Part shown: piece by piece, positions 1-20,148 of the stretch
Layout: every line of letters begins with the position of its first letter
Position numbering within the stretch: the first letter of the stretch is position 1
Assembly (NCBI RefSeq): GCF_044324875.1
Contig: NZ_CP172185.1
Direction: 5' to 3' (one strand)
DNA length: 64,000 nt
From: Escherichia coli
Lineage (GTDB): Bacteria > Pseudomonadota > Gammaproteobacteria > Enterobacterales > Enterobacteriaceae
Position numbers and translations under genes: made by a program
The notes under the pieces: model-generated
Seen by the model: the letters and a program-made list of their open reading frames with translations, nothing else
Told to the model about the DNA's origin: nothing
Database searches by the model: none

Positions 1-707
1 GCCTTTATAGATCAATGACTTTTCAAAATTCGCTCCGAGAAAGGTGATTGATACGTCTTTGTACTTACTGAGATCTTTCCATGCGGTAATATTAAGCTGT
101 TCCTTTTTCGCATCGGTAAAGTACTCATTATTCATGATGAACATATCATTTTCGTTAATTGCTGGTAGCTGGTTCAAAATATTCTTCAGTACTTCCCCTT
201 GTATTTCTGGTTTTCTTTCTGCCGCAATATACATATTTCTGTCATCTAATGACTGTACATTGTGTATTAATGAATTAAGAATTACATTTTTTATATTAGT
301 ATCACCCTCATTAATATTCTGAAAAGAATGAAAATTAGTTACGTCATCAATATAAACATTCCACCCGGACAATAATTCAACAGAAATTTTAAAAAAGGTT
401 TTGTCTGTGATAAGTAATGTCGATGAATTCGAACTATTCAAATAATCGATAACAGTACTAATTACACTTTCATCTCTCGGAACTGAATCTGTAATAATAT
501 ACTTACAATCATTAATTTGTTTTGCTGTCTGTTTAATAAGTTCTTGTGTGTTCTGCACTAAAATATATTTTTCAGTACTATTGTTAATTAAATTACATAT
601 AGCAGTAGTTTTACCTGAACCACAAGGGGCGGAGACATACTTAAATTTATTATAAATAGGTGTAGGATTAATCATTTGTACACGCTCCATATTGATTAAT
701 TTAGAAA
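1..707 (-). CDS. P-loop NTPase, helicase-like or AAA+/STAND-like, C-terminus outside window (partial, at least 235 aa)
   Basis: My own minus-strand translation from ATG at 707: MADLSKLINMERVQMINPTPIYNKFKYVSAPCGSGKTTAICNLIN..., with Walker A GSGKTT near residue 30 and a hydrophobic-DD Walker B-like motif VYIDDV about 85 aa later. Low GC. Not in the ORF track because it has no stop within the window. Confidence 0.6.
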
Positions 708-792
708 GGTCAGCCATTCCAGTGTCTGGCCTTTCGTTGTTTTAGTTATTAGTATTTAGGCATTGAAAAATAATTTTATTTGGCATAGTAAA

Positions 793-2355
793 TCATGATT
801 TATTGATTAAATACTCCACCGATTTTAGGTCATCATTCTGAACTGCCATAAATTTCACATCACCAGTTTTACTATCAATTACCATTGCTTGCTTCTCATT
901 AACACCAATATAATTCACAACTAACATAATAGCATTTCCTAAACGCTTCATTTTTATATTTTTAATAACACGTTTAATCTTCACATTAAAATTAAGTCTT
1001 AAATTAGTATTCTTAGAGTCGAGCAAATCATCAGTGCACGATTCTTTTAAATCGCTAAATTTTTCATAACCAACATTTGATTGTTTCAACCTAGTAATTT
1101 CAGTTCGTATTTCGCTAATACGACGTTGGAGGTTTTTTAGTATACGTCTATCATTAGGGTCAGGTATGTATTCCTTTTCCATGTCTGCGAGTATTTCGCT
1201 ACTATAATTTTCTTTTGTAGCTAGCTCTATTGAAAGATAGTTTATTTTAATTTGTATATCATCATCGTTTGACCTCAACATAGAAAAGTCAAAATTCCTG
1301 ATATGTTCCAATAAAGCATTTTCTATAATCTTGTATTTGAAACCTCTTTCTTTGCATTTATCAATTTTCAATAGACTCCCACCACAACGAAAGTATGTAT
1401 CACCTTTTTTATCGACAGAATTAACTTGGACATATCTGCCACAATTCATACATATGCATAATCCTGCAAATAAATTATTAGCTTTTACATTTACTTTTCC
1501 CAACGGGTTTCTCTGCTTTCGTAAATCATTTACAGTTTCAAATAATGATTGTTCAACAACCACTGGATAGATAATCATACCATCTAAAATTTTACGTCCC
1601 GTAGAATTGAATTTACCAATAAGCCTTTGATCTTTAATTATTTTAACCAAATGATTAATAGTCGGCTCACTTTCATTTATCTGCATTTTTTTCTTTTTTA
1701 GTTCATCACGGATTGCAGCAGGTCCAAATCCATCAGCATACATTTTAAAAATAAGGTTGAACTTCTCAGCCTCACCTTCTTTTATCACATACTTATTATT
1801 TTTAACTTCTATCCATGATGGCACTCGATGTGTTAAAACAGATGTTCCTTCGATAGTATTTTTTATTCTTTCATCCCAGTTTTTAATACTTAAGCGAGCT
1901 TTGCGTTTACTTTCATTATGTGCTCGCTGTAAACCTCCTGAAATAATATTCAGATCACTATATTGGTGATGTATCATTTCTGTTTCTACTTCATGAATAT
2001 CGCATCCAGCATTAATCAAGCTCAAGAATAATCCTGCGGCTCGGTTGGGTGCGGCTCTACTAAAGCGGTCTAGGTTTTCAATGACTAACACTGAATTAGT
2101 GATCTTTTTCTGTAACACATCATCTATAAAGTTTTTCAGTACAGAACCATCTTCGATATTTTTTCCGCTATATGCAGATACACCTTCGGCATACAACCAA
2201 CTAATATCCCCAAACTCATAGCCACGGTTATGTTGAGAATCATCGTATGCAGCAACGTAATCTCGCAGCATTGTTTGCTGTCTCGACATGCCATAGCCAT
2301 CTTTAGCTTGTCCTCTCGAACTGACACGAGCGTAGCAATACACCGCTTTTTTCAT
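793..2355 (-). CDS. Large serine recombinase (integrase/resolvase family), 520 aa
   Basis: N-terminal resolvase-type catalytic region YCYARVSSRGQ with the serine nucleophile context; cysteine-rich zinc-ribbon-like segment CICMNCGRY...FRCGG; C-terminal coiled-coil-like region; low GC; sits at the extreme end of the foreign element. Confidence 0.85.
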   Translation of the reverse strand: MKKAVYCYARVSSRGQAKDGYGMSRQQTMLRDYVAAYDDSQHNRGYEFGDISWLYAEGVSAYSGKNIEDGSVLKNFIDDVLQKKITNSVLVIENLDRFSRAAPNRAAGLFLSLINAGCDIHEVETEMIHHQYSDLNIISGGLQRAHNESKRKARLSIKNWDERIKNTIEGTSVLTHRVPSWIEVKNNKYVIKEGEAEKFNLIFKMYADGFGPAAIRDELKKKKMQINESEPTINHLVKIIKDQRLIGKFNSTGRKILDGMIIYPVVVEQSLFETVNDLRKQRNPLGKVNVKANNLFAGLCICMNCGRYVQVNSVDKKGDTYFRCGGSLLKIDKCKERGFKYKIIENALLEHIRNFDFSMLRSNDDDIQIKINYLSIELATKENYSSEILADMEKEYIPDPNDRRILKNLQRRISEIRTEITRLKQSNVGYEKFSDLKESCTDDLLDSKNTNLRLNFNVKIKRVIKNIKMKRLGNAIMLVVNYIGVNEKQAMVIDSKTGDVKFMAVQNDDLKSVEYLINKS

Positions 2356-2396
2356 TTTATTTTCCCTAAAATCATAACAGTAAAAAGCAGTATATC

Positions 2397-2801
2397 ATGG
2401 TGGTTATTGGCATCATTGCCATTTTAAGCGCCATTGGTATTCCCGCTTATCAAAACTACCTGCGCAAAGCCGCACTCACCGACATGCTACAAACCTTTGT
2501 GCCTTACCGTACCGCCGTAGAGTTGTGCGCGCTGGAACATGGTGGATTAGATACCTGCGACGGTGGCAGTAATGGCATCCCCTCGCCTACCACTACCCGC
2601 TATGTTTCAGCCATGAGTGTGGCAAAGGGCGTGGTGTCGCTGACCGGGCAAGAAAGTCTCAATGGGCTAAGCGTCGTCATGACGCCGGGTTGGGATAACG
2701 CAAACGGCGTCACCGGTTGGACGCGCAACTGCAATATTCAAAGTGACAGCGCATTGCAGCAAGCCTGCGAAGATGTCTTCCGCTTTGATGACGCCAACTA
2801 A
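2397..2801 (+). pseudogene. ppdD: Type IV prepilin PpdD, N-terminally truncated by the upstream insertion
   Basis: ORF begins MVVIGIIAILSAIGIPAYQNYLRKAA..., i.e. inside the conserved pilin N-terminal helix; the leader peptide and the G/F cleavage site with FTLIE are missing; sequence immediately upstream is low-GC foreign DNA. Confidence 0.75.
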
Positions 2802-2810
2802 GGAGCGGCA

Positions 2811-4196
2811 ATGAATATTCCACAGCTCACCGCCCTGTGTCTGCGTTATCAGGGAGTCTTGCTGGATGCCAGCGAAGAGGTGGTTCATGTTGCGGTGGTC
2901 GATGCCCCTTCGCATGAGCTACTGGACGCATTGCATTTCGCTACCACCAAACGTATTGAGATCACCTGCTGGACGCGCCAACAAATGGAAGGTCACGCCA
3001 GTCGCACACAACAGACATTGCCCGTAGCTATTCATGAGAAGCATCAGCCCAAAGCAGAGTTGCTGACTCGAACGTTACAATCTGCGCTGGAACAACGCGC
3101 GTCTGATATTCATATCGAACCAGCGGACAATGGCTACCGCATACGCTTGCGTATCGACGGCGTATTGCATCCTTTACCGGATGTTTCACCGGATGCCGGA
3201 ATCGCATTAACCGCCAGATTAAAAGTGCTGGGGAACCTGGATATTGCGGAACATCGCCTGCCGCAGGACGGGCAATTCACTGTCGAACTGGCAGGAAACG
3301 CCGTCTCATTTCGTATTGCGACCTTACCATGTCGGGGTGGTGAAAAGGTGGTATTAAGGTTGTTACAGCAGGTGAGTCAGGCACTGGATGTCAACACGCT
3401 TGGAATGCAGCCGTTACAACTGGCGGACTTTGCTCATGCCTTGCAACAACCACAGGGACTGGTGCTGGTAACAGGCCCTACAGGCAGCGGCAAAACGGTC
3501 ACGCTTTATAGTGCCCTGCAAACGCTGAATACCGCTGACATTAATATTTGTAGCGTAGAAGATCCGGTTGAGATCCCCATAGCCGGACTAAACCAGACGC
3601 AAATCCATCCGCGTGCCGGACTCACCTTTCAGGGCGTTTTGCGTGCGTTATTGCGCCAGGATCCTGACGTCATCATGATCGGAGAGATCCGCGATGGCGA
3701 AACGGCAGAAATTGCCATTAAAGCCGCGCAAACCGGTCACCTGGTGTTGTCTACCCTACACACTAATTCCACCTGCGAAACGCTGGTACGTTTACAGCAA
3801 ATGGGAGTCGCCCGCTGGATGCTATCATCGGCGCTTACGCTGGTAATAGCCCAGCGTCTGGTACGCAAACTTTGCCCGCATTGTCGCCGGCAGCAAGGGG
3901 AGCCCATCCATATTCCAGACAATGTATGGCCGTCGCCGCTGCCCCACTGGCAGGCACCCGGTTGTGTACATTGCTACCACGGTTTTTATGGTCGCACGGC
4001 CTTATTTGAAGTTCTGCCCATAACACCGGTCATACGTCAGCTTATTTCCGCTAATACCGACGTTGAATCGCTGGAAATGCACGCCCGACAGGCGGGTATG
4101 CGTACGCTTTTTGAAAACGGCTGCCTGGCCGTGGAGCAAGGCTTAACCACCTTTGAAGAGTTAATCCGCGTATTGGGGATGCCGCATGGCGAGTAA
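2811..4196 (+). CDS. hofB: Type IV pilus assembly ATPase (PilB/GspE family)
   Basis: 461 aa with Walker A GPTGSGKT and a CxxC...CxxC zinc motif; position downstream of ppdD. Confidence 0.95.
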
Positions 4197-5388
4197 GCAA
4201 CTCTGGCGCTGGCATGGCATAACCGGCGACGGTAATGCGCAAGATGGGATGCTATGGGCAGAGAGTCGTGCTTTACTGCTTATGGCACTACAGCAACAGA
4301 TGGTTACCCCACTTAGCCTGAAGCGAATCGCCATCAATTCTGCGCAGTGGCGAGGAGATAAAAGCGCGGAAGTCATTCATCAACTGGCGACGCTACTCAA
4401 AGCCGGGTTAACGCTTTCTGAAGGGCTGGCACTGCTGGCGGAACAGCATCCCAGTAAGCAATGGCAAGCGTTGCTGCAATCGCTGGCGCACGATCTCGAA
4501 CAGGGCATTGCTTTTTCCAATGCCTTATTACCCTGGTCAGAGGTATTTCCGCCGCTCTATCAGGCAATGATCCGCACGGGGGAATTGACTGGTAAGTTAG
4601 ATGAATGTTGCTTTGAACTTGCTCGACAGCAAAAAGCCCAGCGTCAGTTAGCCGATAAAGTGAAATCAGCGTTGCGTTATCCCATCATCATTTTAGCGAT
4701 GGCAATCATGGTGGTTGTGGCAATGCTGCATTTTGTGCTGCCGGAGTTTGCTGCTATTTATAAGACCTTCAACACCCCACTACCGGTACTAACGCAGGGG
4801 ATCATGACGCTGGCAGACTTTAGTGGCGAATGGGGCTGGCTGCTGGTGTTGTTCGGCTTTCTGCTGGCGATAGCCAATAAGTTGCTGATGCGCCGCCCGA
4901 CCTGGCTTATCGCGCGGCAGAAATTGCTGTTACGCATCCCGATTATGGGTTCACTGATGCGGGGACAAAAACTCACGCAGATCTTTACGATTCTGGCGCT
5001 GACTCAAAGTGCAGGCATTACTTTTTTACAGGGCGTAGAGAGCGTCAGAGCAACAATGCGCTGCCCGTACTGGGTGCAACTTCTGACACAAATCCAGCAC
5101 GATATCAGTAACGGTCATCCCATCTGGCTGGCGCTAAAAAATACCGGTGAGTTTAGCCCGCTCTGTTTGCAATTAGTGAGAACAGGAGAGGCATCCGGCT
5201 CGCTGGATCTCATGTTAGACAACCTCGCCCATCATCATCGGGATAACACACTGGCGCTGGCGGATAACCTCGCAGCCTTACTGGAACCGGCGTTGCTGAT
5301 CATAACGGGAGGAATTATCGGTACGCTGGTGGTGGCAATGTATCTGCCCATTTTCCATTTAGGCGATGCAATGAGTGGAATGGGATAA
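4186..5388 (+). CDS. hofC: Type IV pilus inner-membrane platform protein (PilC/GspF family)
   Basis: 400 aa, overlaps hofB stop; hydrophobic membrane segments; conserved synteny. Confidence 0.95.
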   Translation: MASKQLWRWHGITGDGNAQDGMLWAESRALLLMALQQQMVTPLSLKRIAINSAQWRGDKSAEVIHQLATLLKAGLTLSEGLALLAEQHPSKQWQALLQSLAHDLEQGIAFSNALLPWSEVFPPLYQAMIRTGELTGKLDECCFELARQQKAQRQLADKVKSALRYPIIILAMAIMVVVAMLHFVLPEFAAIYKTFNTPLPVLTQGIMTLADFSGEWGWLLVLFGFLLAIANKLLMRRPTWLIARQKLLLRIPIMGSLMRGQKLTQIFTILALTQSAGITFLQGVESVRATMRCPYWVQLLTQIQHDISNGHPIWLALKNTGEFSPLCLQLVRTGEASGSLDLMLDNLAHHHRDNTLALADNLAALLEPALLIITGGIIGTLVVAMYLPIFHLGDAMSGMG

Positions 5389-5417
5389 CGCTGGCGTGTT
5401 GCTCCACGCCAGCGTTG
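5388..5417. terminator. Hairpin between convergent hofC and guaC (possible bidirectional terminator)
   Basis: Inverted repeat aacgctggcgtg / cacgccagcgtt between two converging gene ends; no strong T-run. Confidence 0.35.
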
Positions 5418-5422
5418 GGAGA

Positions 5423-6466
5423 TTACAGGTTGTTGAAGATGCGGTTTTCTTGTTCCAGCACACGGATAAATGTGGTGCGCTTGGTCAGCTCTTTCAGGCG
5501 TGAAGCCCCAACGTATGTACAAGCTGAACGCAGGCCGCCCAAAATATCACGCGCGGTATTTTCAACCGGGCCTCGCAGCGGCAGCTTAACGGTTTTACCT
5601 TCTGCTGCGCGATATTCCGCAACGCCGCCAACGTGACGTTTCATCGCAGACTCGGAGCTCATGCCGTAGAACAGCATAAATTTCTCGCCGTTCTCCTCAA
5701 CGATGCGACCGCCGCTCTCTTCGTGGCCCGCCAGCATGCCGCCAAGCATGACGAAATCGGCACCGCCGCCAAAGGCTTTCGCGACATCGCCCGGCGTGGT
5801 GCAGCCACCGTCGCTGACGATCATTCCGCCCAGACCATGCGCAGCATCGGCACATTCGATCACCGCAGAAAGTTGCGGATAACCGACGCCTGTTTTGACG
5901 CGAGTTGTACAAACAGAACCTGGGCCAATGCCAACTTTAACGATATCAGCACCGGAGAGGATAAGCTCCTCACACATTTCACCAGTCACTACGTTGCCAG
6001 CACAAATGGTTTTGGTCGGCCACGCTTCACGCGCTTTCGCAACGAACTGCACGAAGTGTTCGGAATAACCATTCGCCACATCAATACAAACGAAATTTAA
6101 TGCCGGGTTCAGGTCGAGAATCTGTTTAGTTTTTTCGAAATCCGCATCTGATGTACCGGTAGAAACCATCACATGTTTCAGCACATCAACGGAAGAATTG
6201 TTGATAAACGCTTGCCACTCTTCGACAGAATAGTGTTTATGCACAGCAGTCAAAATATCAAAAGAAGCCAGCGCAGAGGCCATAGAAAATGTGCCTACGG
6301 TGTCCATATTTGCGGCGATAATCGGCACGCCGGACCAGCTCTGACCTGAATGTTTGAAGGTGAATTGACGTTCCAGTTCAACATCGGAACGGCTTTTAAG
6401 AGTGGAGCGTTTAGGGCGGATGAGAACGTCTTTAAAACCTAACTTCAGATCTTCTTCAATACGCAT
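5423..6466 (-). CDS. guaC: GMP reductase
   Basis: 347 aa, IMPDH/GMPR-fold protein; synteny between hofC and coaE. Confidence 0.95.
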
Positions 6467-6690
6467 GTGCGGATTCCTGGGGTTAATGGCTATAAGGGTA
6501 AGAGCGCAACTCCAGTGACGTTATCATACGCACTAATCAATGCGGCGCAAGACTGCGAAATTGTCTTTTTTTACGCTACAATCCCATAAATTTACCTGGT
6601 AAATAGTGAGCGAACGTTTAATCAATTTCGCTTTCGTGCGCTCATTTTTAACGTTTTGATAATCATGATGAATTCCCGGGAATATAAATT

Positions 6691-7311
6691 ATGAGGTATA
6701 TAGTTGCCTTAACGGGAGGCATTGGCAGTGGCAAGAGTACCGTTGCCAATGCGTTTGCTGATCTCGGAATTAACGTCATTGATGCCGATATTATTGCGCG
6801 TCAGGTGGTTGAACCAGGTGCACCTGCGCTACATGCCATTGCTGATCACTTTGGCGCTAACATGATTGCTGCTGATGGAACATTGCAGCGCCGGGCCTTG
6901 CGCGAGCGGATCTTCGCCAACCCGGAAGAGAAAAACTGGCTTAACGCCCTGCTGCATCCGCTGATTCAGCAAGAGACGCAACACCAGATCCAGCAAGCTA
7001 CTTCCCCCTATGTACTATGGGTTGTGCCATTGCTGGTAGAAAACTCACTGTATAAAAAAGCGAATCGAGTGCTGGTGGTGGATGTCAGCCCAGAAACGCA
7101 ACTTAAGCGCACCATGCAGCGCGATGATGTAACTCGCGAGCATGTTGAACAAATCCTTGCTGCTCAGGCAACGCGCGAAGCCCGCCTTGCCGTGGCAGAT
7201 GACGTCATTGATAATAACGGCGCACCGGATGCTATCGCATCGGATGTTGCCCGCCTGCACGCACACTATTTGCAGCTTGCGTCGCAGTTTGTCTCACAGG
7301 AAAAACCGTAA
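6691..7311 (+). CDS. coaE: Dephospho-CoA kinase
   Basis: 206 aa, N-terminal P-loop GGIGSGKST. Confidence 0.95.
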
Positions 7312-8054
7312 TGCAGACCCAGGTCCTTTTTGAACATCCACTAAATGAAAAAATGCGTACGTGGCTGCGCATTGAGTTTTTGATTCAGCAACTCACCGTT
7401 AATTTACCCATCGCTGACCACGCTGGCGCGCTGCATTTCTTCCGTAATGTCAGTGAATTACTGGATGTTTTCGAGCGTGGCGAAGTCCGCACTGAGCTGT
7501 TGAAAGAACTTGACCGGCAGCAACGTAAACTCCAGACCTGGATTGGCGTGCCTGGCGTGGACCAGAGCCGTATTGAAGCATTAATTCAGCAGTTAAAAGC
7601 GGCGGGGAGCGTATTAATTTCCGCGCCGCGTATCGGGCAATTTCTGCGTGAAGATCGTTTGATTGCTCTGGTGCGTCAGCGACTGAGCATCCCAGGCGGC
7701 TGTTGCAGCTTTGATTTACCTTCATTGCACATTTGGCTGCATCTACCCCAGGCGCAGCGCGACAGCCAGGTAGAAACCTGGATTGCCAGCCTGAACCCGC
7801 TCACCCAGGCACTTACCATGGTGCTGGATTTAATTCGCCAGTCGGCCCCCTTCCGTAAACAAACCAGCCTGAATGGTTTTTATCAGGATAACGGTGGCGA
7901 TGCCGACTTGCTGCGCCTGAATCTGTCGCTCGATTCACAGCTTTATCCGCAAATTTCCGGTCATAAGAGCCGTTTTGCCATTCGTTTTATGCCGCTGGAC
8001 AGTGAAAACGGACAGGTACCGGAACGTCTGGATTTCGAATTGGCCTGTTGCTAA
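7311..8054 (+). CDS. zapD: Cell division factor ZapD
   Basis: 247 aa, start overlaps coaE stop; conserved coaE-zapD-yacG arrangement. Confidence 0.9.
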
Positions 8055-8063
8055 GGAGTAAAA

Positions 8064-8261
8064 ATGTCAGAAACTATTACGGTGAATTGCCCAACCTGCG
8101 GGAAAACGGTGGTATGGGGTGAAATCAGCCCGTTTCGGCCATTTTGCTCCAAACGTTGTCAGCTGATCGACCTCGGAGAATGGGCTGCTGAAGAAAAACG
8201 AATCCCCAGCAGTGGCGATCTTTCCGAAAGCGATGACTGGAGCGAAGAGCCAAAGCAGTGA
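8064..8261 (+). CDS. yacG: DNA gyrase inhibitor YacG (zinc finger)
   Basis: 65 aa with CPTCGK...CSKRC zinc-ribbon cysteines. Confidence 0.9.
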
Positions 8262-8265
8262 CATT

Positions 8266-8345
8266 TTGTCTGATGCGACGCTGGCCTGATAAGACGCGCC
8301 AGCGTCGCATCGGGCATCTTGTGCAAATGTTGGATGCGGCATAAA
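8266..8345. repeat. REP / palindromic unit cluster (BIME) between yacG and mutT
   Basis: gtctgatgcgacgctggcctgataagacgcgccagcgtcgcatc and related REP consensus in an intergenic region between convergent genes. Confidence 0.8.
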
Positions 8346-8348
8346 CAC

Positions 8349-8747
8349 CTATCCGACATACACGCGCTTAAGCTTCGCAATTACCGGTTCATTGGCTGGC
8401 GGAAACTCATCGGCATTAAGACCGACCAGCGACATCCACTTACCGGGTTGCCCTTCTTTACCCCACGGCTCCCCTTCCCAGCTTTCGACCAGCCAGAACC
8501 ACAGTGTTATATGCCTGTCCGGGAATTCATATTCGAGTTTTTCAAATAGCGAAAAATGTTGTGGGGTAATCCCGACTTCTTCCTGAAGTTCACGCACCAC
8601 CGCCTGTTCCGGCGTTTCACCCATTTCAATTTTACCGCCGGGAAACTCCAGTTTATTCGCCATGTGCGCATCTGCTGCGCGACGGGTTATAAAGATTTCA
8701 TTGTTCTCGTTGCGAATAATACCTACCGCAATTTGCAGCTTTTTCAT
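8349..8747 (-). CDS. mutT: 8-oxo-dGTP diphosphatase (Nudix)
   Basis: 132-aa ORF with Nudix box GGKIEMGETPEQAVVRELQEEVG. Confidence 0.95.
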   Translation of the reverse strand: MKKLQIAVGIIRNENNEIFITRRAADAHMANKLEFPGGKIEMGETPEQAVVRELQEEVGITPQHFSLFEKLEYEFPDRHITLWFWLVESWEGEPWGKEGQPGKWMSLVGLNADEFPPANEPVIAKLKRVYVG

Positions 8748-8806: not shown

Positions 8807-11512
8807 TTATTGCAGGCGACCATGGCACTGCTTGTATTTTTTACCAGAACCGCACGGGCAAGGATCGTTACGTCCTACTTTGCGTTCACCGGTTTGCGCC
8901 GCCAGTGCAGCTGCGGCTGCAGAGTCGTCATCCTGATGGCTAAGCTGCTGCATTTGCGCTAAACGCTCGGCTTCCATACGACGCTGTTGTTCCAGCTCCT
9001 CAACCTCTTCAGGCATACGTACCTGAACTTTGCTCAGCGTGCTGATAACTTCATATTTCAACGACTCCAGCATCGCTGCAAACATGGAGAACGATTCACG
9101 TTTGTATTCCTGCTTCGGATCTTTCTGTGCATAGCCACGCAGGTGGATACCCTGACGCAGATAGTCCATCGCCGCCAGGTGCTCTTTCCACAGAGAGTCG
9201 AGAGTTTGCAGCATGACGCCTTTTTCGAAGTGACGCATCATCTCAGCACCAACCACTTCTTCTTTACGCTGATACACTTCGATGGACTGCGCCAGAATGC
9301 GCTCACGCAGCGTCTCTTCATGCAGTTCTGGTTCTTTATCCAGCCACTCGGCAATTGGCAAATCGAGGTCGAAATCGTTCTTCAGACGTTCCTGCAGCCC
9401 CGGAATATCCCACATTTCTTCCAGCGACTGTGGCGGAATGTAGGCATCAATGGTCACTTTGAACACATCTTCACGAATGCTGTTGATGGTTTCGCTCACA
9501 TCGCTGACATCCAGCAGTTCGTTACGCTGGGAGTAAATGGCGCGACGCTGATCGTTAGCCACGTCATCATATTCCAGCAGTTGCTTACGAATGTCGAAGT
9601 TACGACTTTCAACTTTACGCTGGGCGTTGGCAATCGCTTTAGTCACCCACGGGTGTTCAATGGCTTCGCCTGGCTTCATACCCAGTTTACGCATCATGCC
9701 GGATACTCGGTCGGAGGCAAAAATACGCATCAGCGCATCTTCCATCGACAGGTAGAAACGGGAAGAACCAGCATCCCCCTGACGACCAGAACGACCGCGC
9801 AACTGGTTATCGATACGACGGGATTCGTGACGTTCAGTACCGATGATATGCAGGCCACCTGCTGCCAGTACCGCATCGTGACGAACCTGCCAGTCGGCCT
9901 TAATTTTTTCAATTTGCTCTGCGGTCGGATTTTCCAGCGCGGCAACTTCTGCCTGCCAGCTACCACCGAGCACAATATCTGTACCACGACCCGCCATGTT
10001 GGTCGCGATAGTCACCGCAGCCGGATAACCTGCCTGAGCAACAATCGCCGCTTCGTTGGCGTGGAATTTGGCGTTAAGGACGTTGTGCTTAATACCGGCT
10101 TTGGTCAGTTCGTTTGACACCAGCTCCGATTTTTCGATGGAGATAGTACCCACCAGCACCGGCTGGCCTTTCGCAGTACGTTCTTTGATATCTTCAATGA
10201 TCGCCTGAATTTTTTCCGCTTCAGTCATGTAGACCAGGTCCGGCAGATCTTTACGAATCATTGGACGGTTGGTCGGAACAACGACGGTATCCAGCTTGTA
10301 GATGGAGCTAAATTCGAAAGCTTCGGTATCAGCAGTACCGGTCATCCCCGCCAGTTTTTCATACAGACGGAAGTAGTTCTGGAAGGTGATCGACGCCAGC
10401 GTCTGGTTTTCGTTCTGGATCTGTACACCTTCTTTCGCTTCCACTGCCTGATGCAGGCCATCGGACCAACGACGTCCCTGCATGGTACGACCGGTGTGTT
10501 CGTCAACGATGATAACTTCACCATCTTTAACGATGTAGTCGACGTCTCGGGTAAACAGCGCATGAGCGCGCAGCGCCGCCGTTACGTGGTGCATCAGCAT
10601 GATGTTGGCCGGAGAGTACAGAGACTCCCCTTCATCCATGATGCCTTCTTTCACCAGCAGTTCTTCAATCAGCACCAGACCACGTTCGGTCAGGTTCACC
10701 TGGCGAGATTTTTCGTCCACCGAGAAGTGGCCTTCGCCCTGGAAGGTTTCGGAGTCTTCTTTTTCCTGACGGATCAGGTGCGGAATAATTTTATTCACGC
10801 GTTTATACATTTCCGAGCTGTCTTCTGCCGGGCCGGAAATGATCAGCGGTGTACGCGCTTCATCGATCAGGATGGAGTCCACTTCGTCCACCAGCGCATA
10901 GTGCAGTTTACGCTGTACACGTTCTTCAGGGCTGAACGCCATGTTATCGCGCAGGTAGTCAAAGCCGTATTCGTTGTTCGTACCGTAAGTGATGTCAGCT
11001 GCGTAAGCTTCACGCTTCGCCGGTGCTGGCATGCCCGGCAGGTTGATACCGACAGTCAGGCCAAGGAATTCAAACAGCGGACGGTTGTTTTCGGCGTCAC
11101 GTTGCGCCAGGTAGTCGTTGACGGTAACAACGTGTACGCCCTTACCGGTTAATGCGTTCAGGTAAGCAGGCAGCGTTGCGGTCAGGGTTTTACCTTCACC
11201 GGTACGCATTTCGGCGATGCAGCGTTCGTTAAGAACCATACCGCCGAGTAACTGAACGTCGAAGTGACGCATACCAAAGACGCGCTTACTTGCCTCACGC
11301 ACCACGGCGAAAGCTTCCGGGATCAGATTTTCCAGCACTTCGCCTTTTTCAAGACGTGCACGAAACTCTGCAGTTTTCCCTTTCAGTTCTTCGTCGGAGA
11401 GTTTTTCCATCTCCGGTTCCATGGCATTGATGATGTTGACCACTTTGCGCATCCGGCGCAGGGTGCGATCGTTACGACTACCGAAAACTTTAGTTAATAA
11501 TTTGATTAGCAT
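8807..11512 (-). CDS. secA: Preprotein translocase ATPase SecA
   Basis: 901 aa, [17 protein letters not shown]-terminus, C-terminal zinc-binding [14 protein letters not shown]. Confidence 0.98.
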
Positions 11513-11573: not shown

Positions 11574-13256
<1,683 letters not shown>

Positions 13257-16638: not shown

Positions 16639-19027
<2,389 letters not shown>

Positions 19028-19080
19028 TCTTTACGCCATTAACTTCTTAAATTCATACGATGCAAAAGGCATCGCTACAA

Positions 19081-20148
19081 TTACGCCCGGGCAGCCCGGC
19101 TCACTTCATTTGCCACTCGCTCGGTGGCATCCGGAATGGATGCAGCGCGGGCGCGTTCTGCCATGGTTAATAAGGTTTCTCGCGACCACCCGGCCAGGGT
19201 GTTGGCGACAGCATCCACGCTAAGCTGTGGCTGCTCGATAATTTTGGCTGCGCCCGCTTTTTCCAGCGGTAGAGCATTCCAGTATTGCTGGCGGTCTTTA
19301 TGTTGAAACGGCACAAACAACGCCGGTAGTCCTGCCGCAGCGATTTCACTCACCGTTAACGCACCGGAGCGGCAAACGACGACATCCGCCCACGCATACG
19401 CCGCCGCCATATCATCAATAAATTCCGTCACTTTATGCTGCGGTTGCCCCGCTTCGGCATATGCCTGTTCAACGGATTGTTGCGAACCTTTACCGCTCTG
19501 ATGCCAGATAGTGACTGAATCACCCAGTTTCGCAGCAACCTGCGGCATTGTCTGGTTAAGAATGCGTGCGCCCTGGGAACCACCCACTACCAACACACGA
19601 ACCGGACCTTCACGTCCAGCCAAACGTTGCTGCGGCAACGGCAGCGCCAGCACATCGGTACGCACCGGGTTACCCACCACTTCCGCATTAGGGAAAGCGC
19701 CTGGAAACGCCTGCATCACTTTGGTAGCAATCTTCGCCAGCCATTTATTGGTTAAGCCCGCAATACCGTTTTGTTCATGAAGCACAACCGGAATGCCTAA
19801 CGACCACGCGGCCAGACCACCTGGACCTGATACGTAGCCGCCCATACCGAGCACCACGTCAGGTTTGTACGCTTTCATAATCGCCCGCGCCTGACGCCAG
19901 GCGTTGAAGATACGCAGCGGGGCAGCTATCAGTGCTTTTATACCTTTTCCACGCAGACCAGAGATACGAATGAAATCAATTTCGATGCCATGTTTTGGCA
20001 CTAAGTCCGCTTCCATACGGTCGGCAGTCCCCAGCCAGCGAACTTGCCAACCCTGAGCCATTAGATGGTGCGCAACCGCCAGCCCCGGGAATACATGTCC
20101 ACCGGTTCCGCCTGCCATCACCATTAATCGCTTTCCTTGACCACTCAT
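19081..20148 (-). CDS. murG: Lipid II synthase (UDP-GlcNAc transferase) MurG
   Basis: 355 aa with [12 protein letters not shown]-terminal motif. Confidence 0.97.

Follow-up and report, generated by a model that had tools for sequence, protein, structure and literature searches.

A 520-aa protein encoded in a 64,000-nucleotide stretch of Escherichia coli DNA (contig NZ_CP172185.1; hereafter the window) is very probably the integrase of a 9.6-kb non-phage island that was inserted in the ppdD gene by conservative site-specific recombination. Judged by its domain order and its catalytic residues, the protein is a large serine recombinase, and it is called LSR below. The evidence comes from the architecture of the protein, from both junctions of the island and the corresponding empty site, from the recurrence of the same target in other genera, from the co-variation of integrase and site, and from the horizontal spread of the element. 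The positions of the relevant features are collected in Table 1.

Table 1. Integrase gene, protein domains, attachment-site parts, and adjoining features in the window
Feature	Position	Strand	Basis or remark
Helicase-like P-loop gene, 5' part	1–717	−	runs off the window's left edge; same element
Integration module (35 bp + LSR gene + 41-bp P arm)	758–2396	−	the element's sole right-side part absent from the rcnR-thiM element
LSR gene, 520 aa	793–2355	−	identical to WP_021293056.1; ATG start 2353–2355
LSR coiled coil and C-terminal region, aa ~354–475	1296–931	−	family-profile alignment
LSR zinc ribbon, aa 295–353	1473–1297	−	Pfam Zn_ribbon_recom PF13408, E 2e-7
LSR recombinase domain, aa 195–282	1773–1510	−	Pfam Recombinase PF07508, E 1e-6
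LSR catalytic domain, aa 5–125	2343–1981	−	Pfam Resolvase PF00239, E 4e-6
P arm of attR, element-derived half-site	2356–2396	.	ACAGTAA at 2377–2383, mirrored in P' arm at far end
attR	about 2373–2428	.	hybrid: element DNA left, K-12-identical ppdD right
Core ATGGTGGT	2397–2404	.	common to attL, attR, attB, and reconstructed attP; ppdD codons 13–15
Predicted crossover dinucleotide GT	2400–2401	.	from smallest shared core and dyad symmetry
B' arm of attR, host half-site, ppdD codons 16–23	2405–2428	.	identical to K-12 ppdD
3' part of ppdD, codons 13–146	2397–2801	+	cut off from promoter, leader peptide, and prepilin cleavage site

Domain architecture of the recombinase

A sequence-only reading of this DNA had given the protein the architecture of a large serine integrase. 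Domain searches place it among the recombinases rather than in any other family, and the proposed architecture is borne out by Pfam, PHROG 95, a family profile, and conserved catalytic residues. The Pfam models for the recombinase domain and the zinc ribbon are both matched over their full length, and PHROG 95 ('integrase') matches amino acids 1–475 (E 1e-42). A profile built from 25 family members matches the C-terminal region of the A118 integrase in the PDB (4kis; E 6e-10). This alignment pairs profile positions 186–475 with chain residues 30–314 and spans the recombinase domain, the zinc ribbon, and the coiled coil, and it is the basis on which the coiled coil of LSR is assigned. The profile also matches the catalytic domain of the TP901-1 integrase (E 4e-4). 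When the PDB was searched with LSR as a single sequence, no significant match was obtained (best E 0.15), and the family profile alone gave significant matches.

The residues expected of a serine recombinase are in place. In a single-sequence search, Y8-x-R10-V-S12 and D96-R97-F-S-R100 of LSR align with the TP901-1 integrase motifs YxRVS and LDRxSR, the LSR versions being YARVS (serine at residue 12) and LDRFSR (residues 95–100). Among 25 homologues, there is little or no variation at R10, S12, Q26, D96, R97, and R100. In the zinc ribbon, the cysteines C302, C305, and C334 are invariant in the same homologues and C324 is at least 90% conserved. The spacing of the catalytic residues agrees with the phiC31 and Bxb1 residues listed in PMC12884075.

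LSR gives only sub-threshold matches to NCBIfam models, namely, those for CcrB, XisF, and the IS607 transposase. The CcrB match covers amino acids 2–427 and scores 24.5 bits against a cut-off of 900, and the XisF match covers the zinc-ribbon region and scores 17.8 bits against 375. The CcrB and XisF scores are far under the curated cut-offs, and LSR lies outside all three equivalogs.

Junctions, attachment sites, and the interrupted pilin gene

The GC content of the window rises from ~0.31 to ~0.53 at ~2400. Between the LSR start codon and the first base in common with intact ppdD (2397) there are 41 bp, in close agreement with the earlier estimate of ~40 bp. To the right of this base, ppdD continues from codon 13 and is followed by hofB (annotated gspE), hofC, and guaC. 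Comparison with the uninterrupted gene of K-12, which the sequence-only reading had proposed, allowed the empty attB to be reconstructed as ...ATCGAACTG-ATGGTGGT-TATTGGC.... The junction in the window reads ...GCAGTATATC-ATGGTGGT-TATTGGC..., such that the half from ATGGTGGT rightward is identical to K-12 ppdD and the half to the left comes from the element. This junction is, therefore, the hybrid att junction that had been anticipated, and it falls within the interval (~2356–2420) where an attachment site had been placed.

The same reading had called for a second junction at the far end of the element. An attL does exist 9,597 bp away in six complete genomes, although it is outside the window because the window's left edge falls inside the element. 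In strain MSI001, the far end reads ...ATCGAACTG-ATGGTGGT-CATTAACAGTAAATTACTGT..., 9,597 bp upstream and adjoining nadC. The element can thus be delimited as the 9,597 bp between the ATGGTGGT copies at ppdD codons 13–15, as found in six of 5,426 complete E. coli genomes when these were searched with the window's first 2,800 bp.

The sites attL, attR, attP, and attB were rebuilt for five independent elements, 9,552–11,331 bp long, from E. coli, Enterobacter roggenkampii, Hafnia alvei, and two assembly contigs. In the same order, the shared cores are ATGGTGGT, ATGGTG, ATGGTC, ATGGT, and ATGGTGGT (5–8 bp), the shortest of them, ATGGT, being that of sister element L017. Since the common sequence shrinks to ATGGT, the exchange has to take place within these five positions. 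In all five elements, attP shows its strongest dyad symmetry about the GT of ATG-GT, with 13–15 of 24 arm positions matched there, compared with 4–9 of 24 at other offsets within the shared core (0 to +4). The symmetry of attB peaks at GT in four of five sites. On the grounds that one sister shares ATGGT alone and that attP symmetry is greatest there, GT at 2400–2401 is the predicted central dinucleotide.

A short shared core, imperfect dyad symmetry, and a non-palindromic 2-bp center are what is expected of att sites used by an LSR. ATGGT (2397–2401) does not vary across an alignment of nine junctions, in which AC(A/T)GTA...AGCA is a further conserved motif, located in the P arm. At their outer ends, the two P arms carry ACAGTAA motifs. 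The extent given for the B' arm was derived from the usual size of LSR att sites, which is 40–50 bp.

If the established mechanism of large serine integrases applies here, then the attP of the island would recombine with an attB of ~50 bp at ppdD codons 13–15. The LSR dimers on attP and attB would come together in a synapse, in which Ser12 would cleave both strands of each site at the central dinucleotide with a 2-nt stagger. After a 180-degree rotation of one half of this complex, religation of the ends would yield attL and attR, an insertion that would split ppdD and part ppdD-hofB-hofC from the promoter. Precise excision, for which a recombination directionality factor would be required, would restore ppdD.

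A weak sigma-70-like site (ATGATA, 16 nt, TG-TATGAT) is located on the minus strand at 2398..2371, upstream of the LSR start, and its −35 element overlaps the att core. A second, leftward-pointing promoter-like site at 12930–12901 of locus L001 would read across attP in the circular form only. The count of sigma-70-like sites in the region equals the shuffle expectation, and no promoter is claimed.

The ppdD gene is the pilin gene of the E. coli ppdD-hofBC cluster. Its 3' part begins at Met13 and is without the leader, the G/F cleavage site, and Glu5, and its 5' fragment corresponds to an annotated 27-aa ORF at the other end of the element. The 3' part, hofB, and hofC are split from their native promoter by 9.6 kb. 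The loss of the leader, the cleavage site, Glu5, and the promoter indicates that the pilin gene is inactivated.

An insertion of this kind could also act as a reversible gene-interruption switch ('regulated gene integrity'), in which LSR mainly excises the island under regulation and thereby restores ppdD and a type IV or competence pilus. The models for such a device are skin with SpoIVCA, the fdxN element with XisF, and A118 in comK, and the role would be compatible with that of an integrase and would add to it. It accords with an insertion inside a coding sequence that is not regenerated, as the 27-aa 5' ORF and the truncated 3' part attest. LSRs are also the usual enzymes of such switches, and both XisF and the A118 integrase are among the nearest named relatives of LSR. 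A CI/LexA-like S24 repressor that is present in several sister elements, as is an HTH_35 gene, could couple excision to a signal, but the E. coli copy has neither gene. Furthermore, the element is rare (6/5,426), spreads horizontally, and carries variable cargo, which is the profile of a selfish mobile element and not of a host developmental device. The exact attP junction (GTATATCATGGTGRTSATTAACAG), which would mark the excised form, had no match in IMG/VR or in JGI metagenome contigs, a negative that weighs little because the element is rare. Altogether, we regard the switch as unlikely and LSR as very probably an integrase that brought a mobile island into ppdD.

Target, spread, and modular structure of the island

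Homologues of LSR form 35 clusters at 90% identity, all of them in Enterobacterales. A scan of species-representative genomes yielded only four loci, which suggests that the clade is rare. Relatives with 39–89% identity are found at the same ppdD codon in Enterobacter, Hafnia, Serratia, Klebsiella, Yersinia, and Pseudescherichia. These loci include Enterobacter roggenkampii (88% identity), Hafnia alvei (72%), and Serratia liquefaciens, Klebsiella sp., and Yersinia pseudotuberculosis (41–44%), as well as Enterobacter sichuanensis, Pseudescherichia vulneris, and two further assembly contigs. With one exception, the inspected loci have the LSR gene and the 3' part of ppdD in head-to-head orientation, with hofB, hofC, and guaC downstream of ppdD and the same ATGGT at the joint.

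The exception is an LSR of Phytobacter diazotrophicus (43% identical) that adjoins an XRE-family regulator gene near ruvC (L014, about 9900–10000). There, ATGGTGGT is present at an equivalent distance from the gene start, and the site may be a secondary or re-targeted attB. Judged from the junctions, the clade targets one ppdD codon in at least seven genera, with this single Phytobacter exception. Our literature search found no paper naming ppdD as an attachment site, and large automated island catalogues may contain it. LSR is a target-defined member of the large serine integrase family, located on a small modular island that carries defense genes.

Comparisons among carriers of the element, which include MSI001, 94-3024, KSC64, and FDN-24, bear on how it reached this site. 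Over the 2,396 bp of element DNA in the window, there is no difference from MSI001 (100% identity), whereas the chromosome beyond the right-hand junction is 1.7% diverged from that strain over 20 kb and first departs from it 173 bp past the core. The elements of FDN-24 and KSC64 have two differences in 9,599 positions and their flanks are 1.1–1.8% apart. Conversely, the right flanks of MSI001 and FDN-24 are 0.10% apart and their elements 0.56% apart. Given this incongruence and the occurrence of the same junction in different genera, repeated site-specific acquisition is a better account than inheritance or recombination mediated by the flanks, and a route of transfer between cells presumably exists.

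An alternative explanation is that LSR is an inactive relic and that the island spreads by homologous recombination of its flanks following transduction or conjugative transfer. It would fit with the fact that no directionality factor, transfer genes, or circular form was detected, and with a left flank that is nearly identical for about 0.5–1 kb between some carriers. However, the LSR reading frame is intact and its product identical (WP_021293056.1) in four of four annotated carrier loci, with every catalytic residue kept. Divergence of the right flank starts only 173–202 bp from the core, the similarities of element and flank are incongruent as described above, and the same precise junction recurs across genera in which both the flanks and the LSRs have diverged. 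A relic therefore seems very unlikely, and LSR is better viewed as the island's integrase and as an enzyme that is probably active at present.

As a separate observation, window positions 2570–8400 (ppdD-hofB-hofC-guaC) contain 211 positions that differ from MSI001 in the first 6 kb, or ~3.5%. Relative to the average of 1.7% over 20 kb, this value suggests that the ppdD-hofBC region is unusually polymorphic among E. coli.

The 9.6-kb element has seven genes. The product of the helicase-like gene (477–491 aa; PHROG 2467) is annotated 'type III restriction endonuclease subunit R' and has a weak ResIII/DEAD match at amino acids 26–74. This gene belongs to a 5-kb backbone (L001 15721–20757) that also comprises a small serine resolvase gene, a 119-aa gene, a 346-aa gene, and ~1 kb of non-coding DNA. 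The backbone is 97% identical to part of an island located at rcnR-thiM in about 24 other E. coli genomes (L009 14217–19286), which lacks LSR and carries a tyrosine integrase at the opposite end, together with TIR and NACHT cargo. Hochhauser et al. (2023) list an rcnR-thiM locus in their supplement and give its mobile-element type as 'None'.

Homology with the tyrosine-integrase element extends as far as window position 757 (L001 20757) and ends 35 bp short of the LSR stop codon. A self-contained integration module is therefore formed by the LSR gene together with its 41-bp P arm. Because the same backbone carries a tyrosine integrase at rcnR-thiM, the choice of site follows the integrase module. 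That the small serine recombinase (185 aa, resolvase/invertase type) might instead integrate and excise the island, leaving the 520-aa protein some other role, is extremely improbable: it is a bona fide recombinase (PHROG 125 DNA invertase, E 2e-58; Mpi-like match in NCBIfam) and, with 94% amino acid identity among E. coli, Enterobacter, and Hafnia, is more conserved than LSR (72–88%), but it lies ~2.9 kb from attL and not at an end of the element, has neither the recombinase domain nor the zinc ribbon with which integrases read att sites, and has 100% nucleotide identity with its counterpart in the rcnR-thiM element, which relies on a tyrosine integrase and lacks LSR, so it cannot be what selects ppdD. 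Integration at ppdD is best assigned to LSR.

Two sets of repeats occur in the backbone. Two 24-nt direct repeats (AGTATCATTTAAATT...) at L001 16289–16340 lie directly upstream of the small resolvase gene and may form a res or operator site. Within a 984-bp non-coding stretch (18259–19241) that adjoins the helicase-like gene, three iteron-like direct repeats, each ending in ATCGATCAA(TTA), occupy L001 18488–18586 at spacings of 32 and 42 bp and may be the replication origin of the excised element. Speculatively, the two sets could serve replication and multimer resolution after excision. An Rfam scan of the whole element gave no match.

The region between the small resolvase gene and attL is variable among sister elements. 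It holds a retron RT with STM3845, plus GmrSD, in Enterobacter; an NB-ARC/TPR protein in Hafnia; HamA with a helicase, plus SIR2, in Serratia; Cap4 nuclease with SMC in Klebsiella; and a methyltransferase with an AAA_15 ATPase, and SLATT, in assembly contigs. The cargo of the E. coli copy includes an unannotated pair (425 and 365 aa) consisting of a winged-helix protein and a PD-(D/E)xK nuclease. When the cargo and backbone proteins of this copy were compared with PADLOC, NCBIfam, PHROG, and Pfam, no family reached significance apart from the recombinases and a weak P-loop/ResIII match.

Virion, packaging, and lysis genes are absent from the element, and PHROG recognizes nothing in it beyond integrase, invertase, and a single family without known function. 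Set against phage satellites (PICI, PLE, or P4-like), the island has a helicase-like gene beside iteron-like repeats, and its sisters have the S24 repressor and the HTH_35 gene, but packaging or capsid-redirection genes are not recognizable and neither a helper phage nor induction is known for it. No transfer functions are recognizable in it either, and scans of its proteins with Pfam, NCBIfam, and PADLOC revealed no relaxase domain. Likewise, no gene for a directionality factor is recognizable in the element, and the integration module holds LSR alone.

Two candidates were considered and rejected. The 119-aa conserved protein has no Pfam match and occurs in the tyrosine-integrase element as well, such that it is not LSR-specific and was not retained as a directionality factor. 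An origin of the module in phages or plasmids was also set aside, since no close relative of LSR was found in plasmids or in 50,697 phage records, in which the best matches have 24–29% identity.

Significance and relationship to known systems

LSR and its sites form a natural serine integrase/att pair. Among 5,426 complete E. coli genomes, 5,416 have an intact 92-bp attB region and six carry this element at the site, and a homologous form of attB is present in other enteric genera. Because attB is already so widespread, it is a potential landing pad for cargo that would require no engineered site. The findings also identify ppdD as a spot for site-specific integration of small islands. The exchange of integrase modules on one backbone is natural and provides a clear case of target choice following the integrase.

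Across hosts, the cargo slot accommodates retron, GmrSD, NB-ARC/Avs-like, Lamassu-like, Hachiman, SIR2, and TIR-NACHT genes. Given that the slot holds defense genes, its unannotated cargo is promising for the discovery of undescribed defense systems.

A broader interpretation can be offered, which is possible but doubtful as a whole. The element may represent an undescribed family of minimal (9.5–11.3 kb) replicative integrative elements of Enterobacterales, with a common backbone (helicase-like gene, iteron region, and small resolvase), an exchangeable integration module (LSR for ppdD or tyrosine integrase for rcnR-thiM), and an anti-phage cargo slot. The LSR version would then reversibly knock out a type IV or DNA-uptake pilus, and for its excision it would rely on a helper phage or plasmid to provide the directionality factor in trans, similar to Vibrio PLEs.

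The PLE integrases of Vibrio cholerae phage satellites are likewise LSRs on a small non-phage anti-phage island of a gamma-proteobacterium. The chromosomal attachment site of PLEs is a Vibrio cholerae repeat. For PLE, Int and the att sites suffice for integration, whereas excision needs a directionality factor, which for PLE1 is PexA, supplied by the helper phage (PMC9638900). There is thus a precedent, in PexA, for an LSR-bearing island that does not encode its own directionality factor. Homology between the PLE integrases and the LSR described here was seen at the family level only, and the target of PLE is attC (PMC9638900) rather than ppdD.

Other relatives are similarly distant. YbcK-type LSRs of E. 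coli lambdoid prophages are the nearest LSRs in the phage collection for the same host species, but they share ~24% identity over 78% of the length and belong to another element in another genomic context. The TP901-1 integrase, whose catalytic domain aligns with that of LSR at very low identity, is a Lactococcus phage enzyme with a different target. CcrB (SCCmec) and XisF (fdxN element), the best NCBIfam matches, both move or excise discrete chromosomal cassettes.

The serine integrase of Listeria phage A118 (LI; PDB 4KIS, 5UDO) resembles LSR in having a recombinase domain, a zinc ribbon with four Cys ligands, and an embedded coiled coil, although the likeness, over an alignment of ~290 residues, is visible at the profile level alone. 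A118 is a prophage with its own target, att sequences, and directionality factor, Gp44, whereas LSR resides on a 9.6-kb non-phage island in which no counterpart of Gp44 was found. A118 targets comK, which encodes a competence regulator. Both A118 and the ppdD island insert within a coding gene and disrupt it, and in this respect the fate of ppdD resembles that of comK and of the targets of other gene-disrupting LSR elements.
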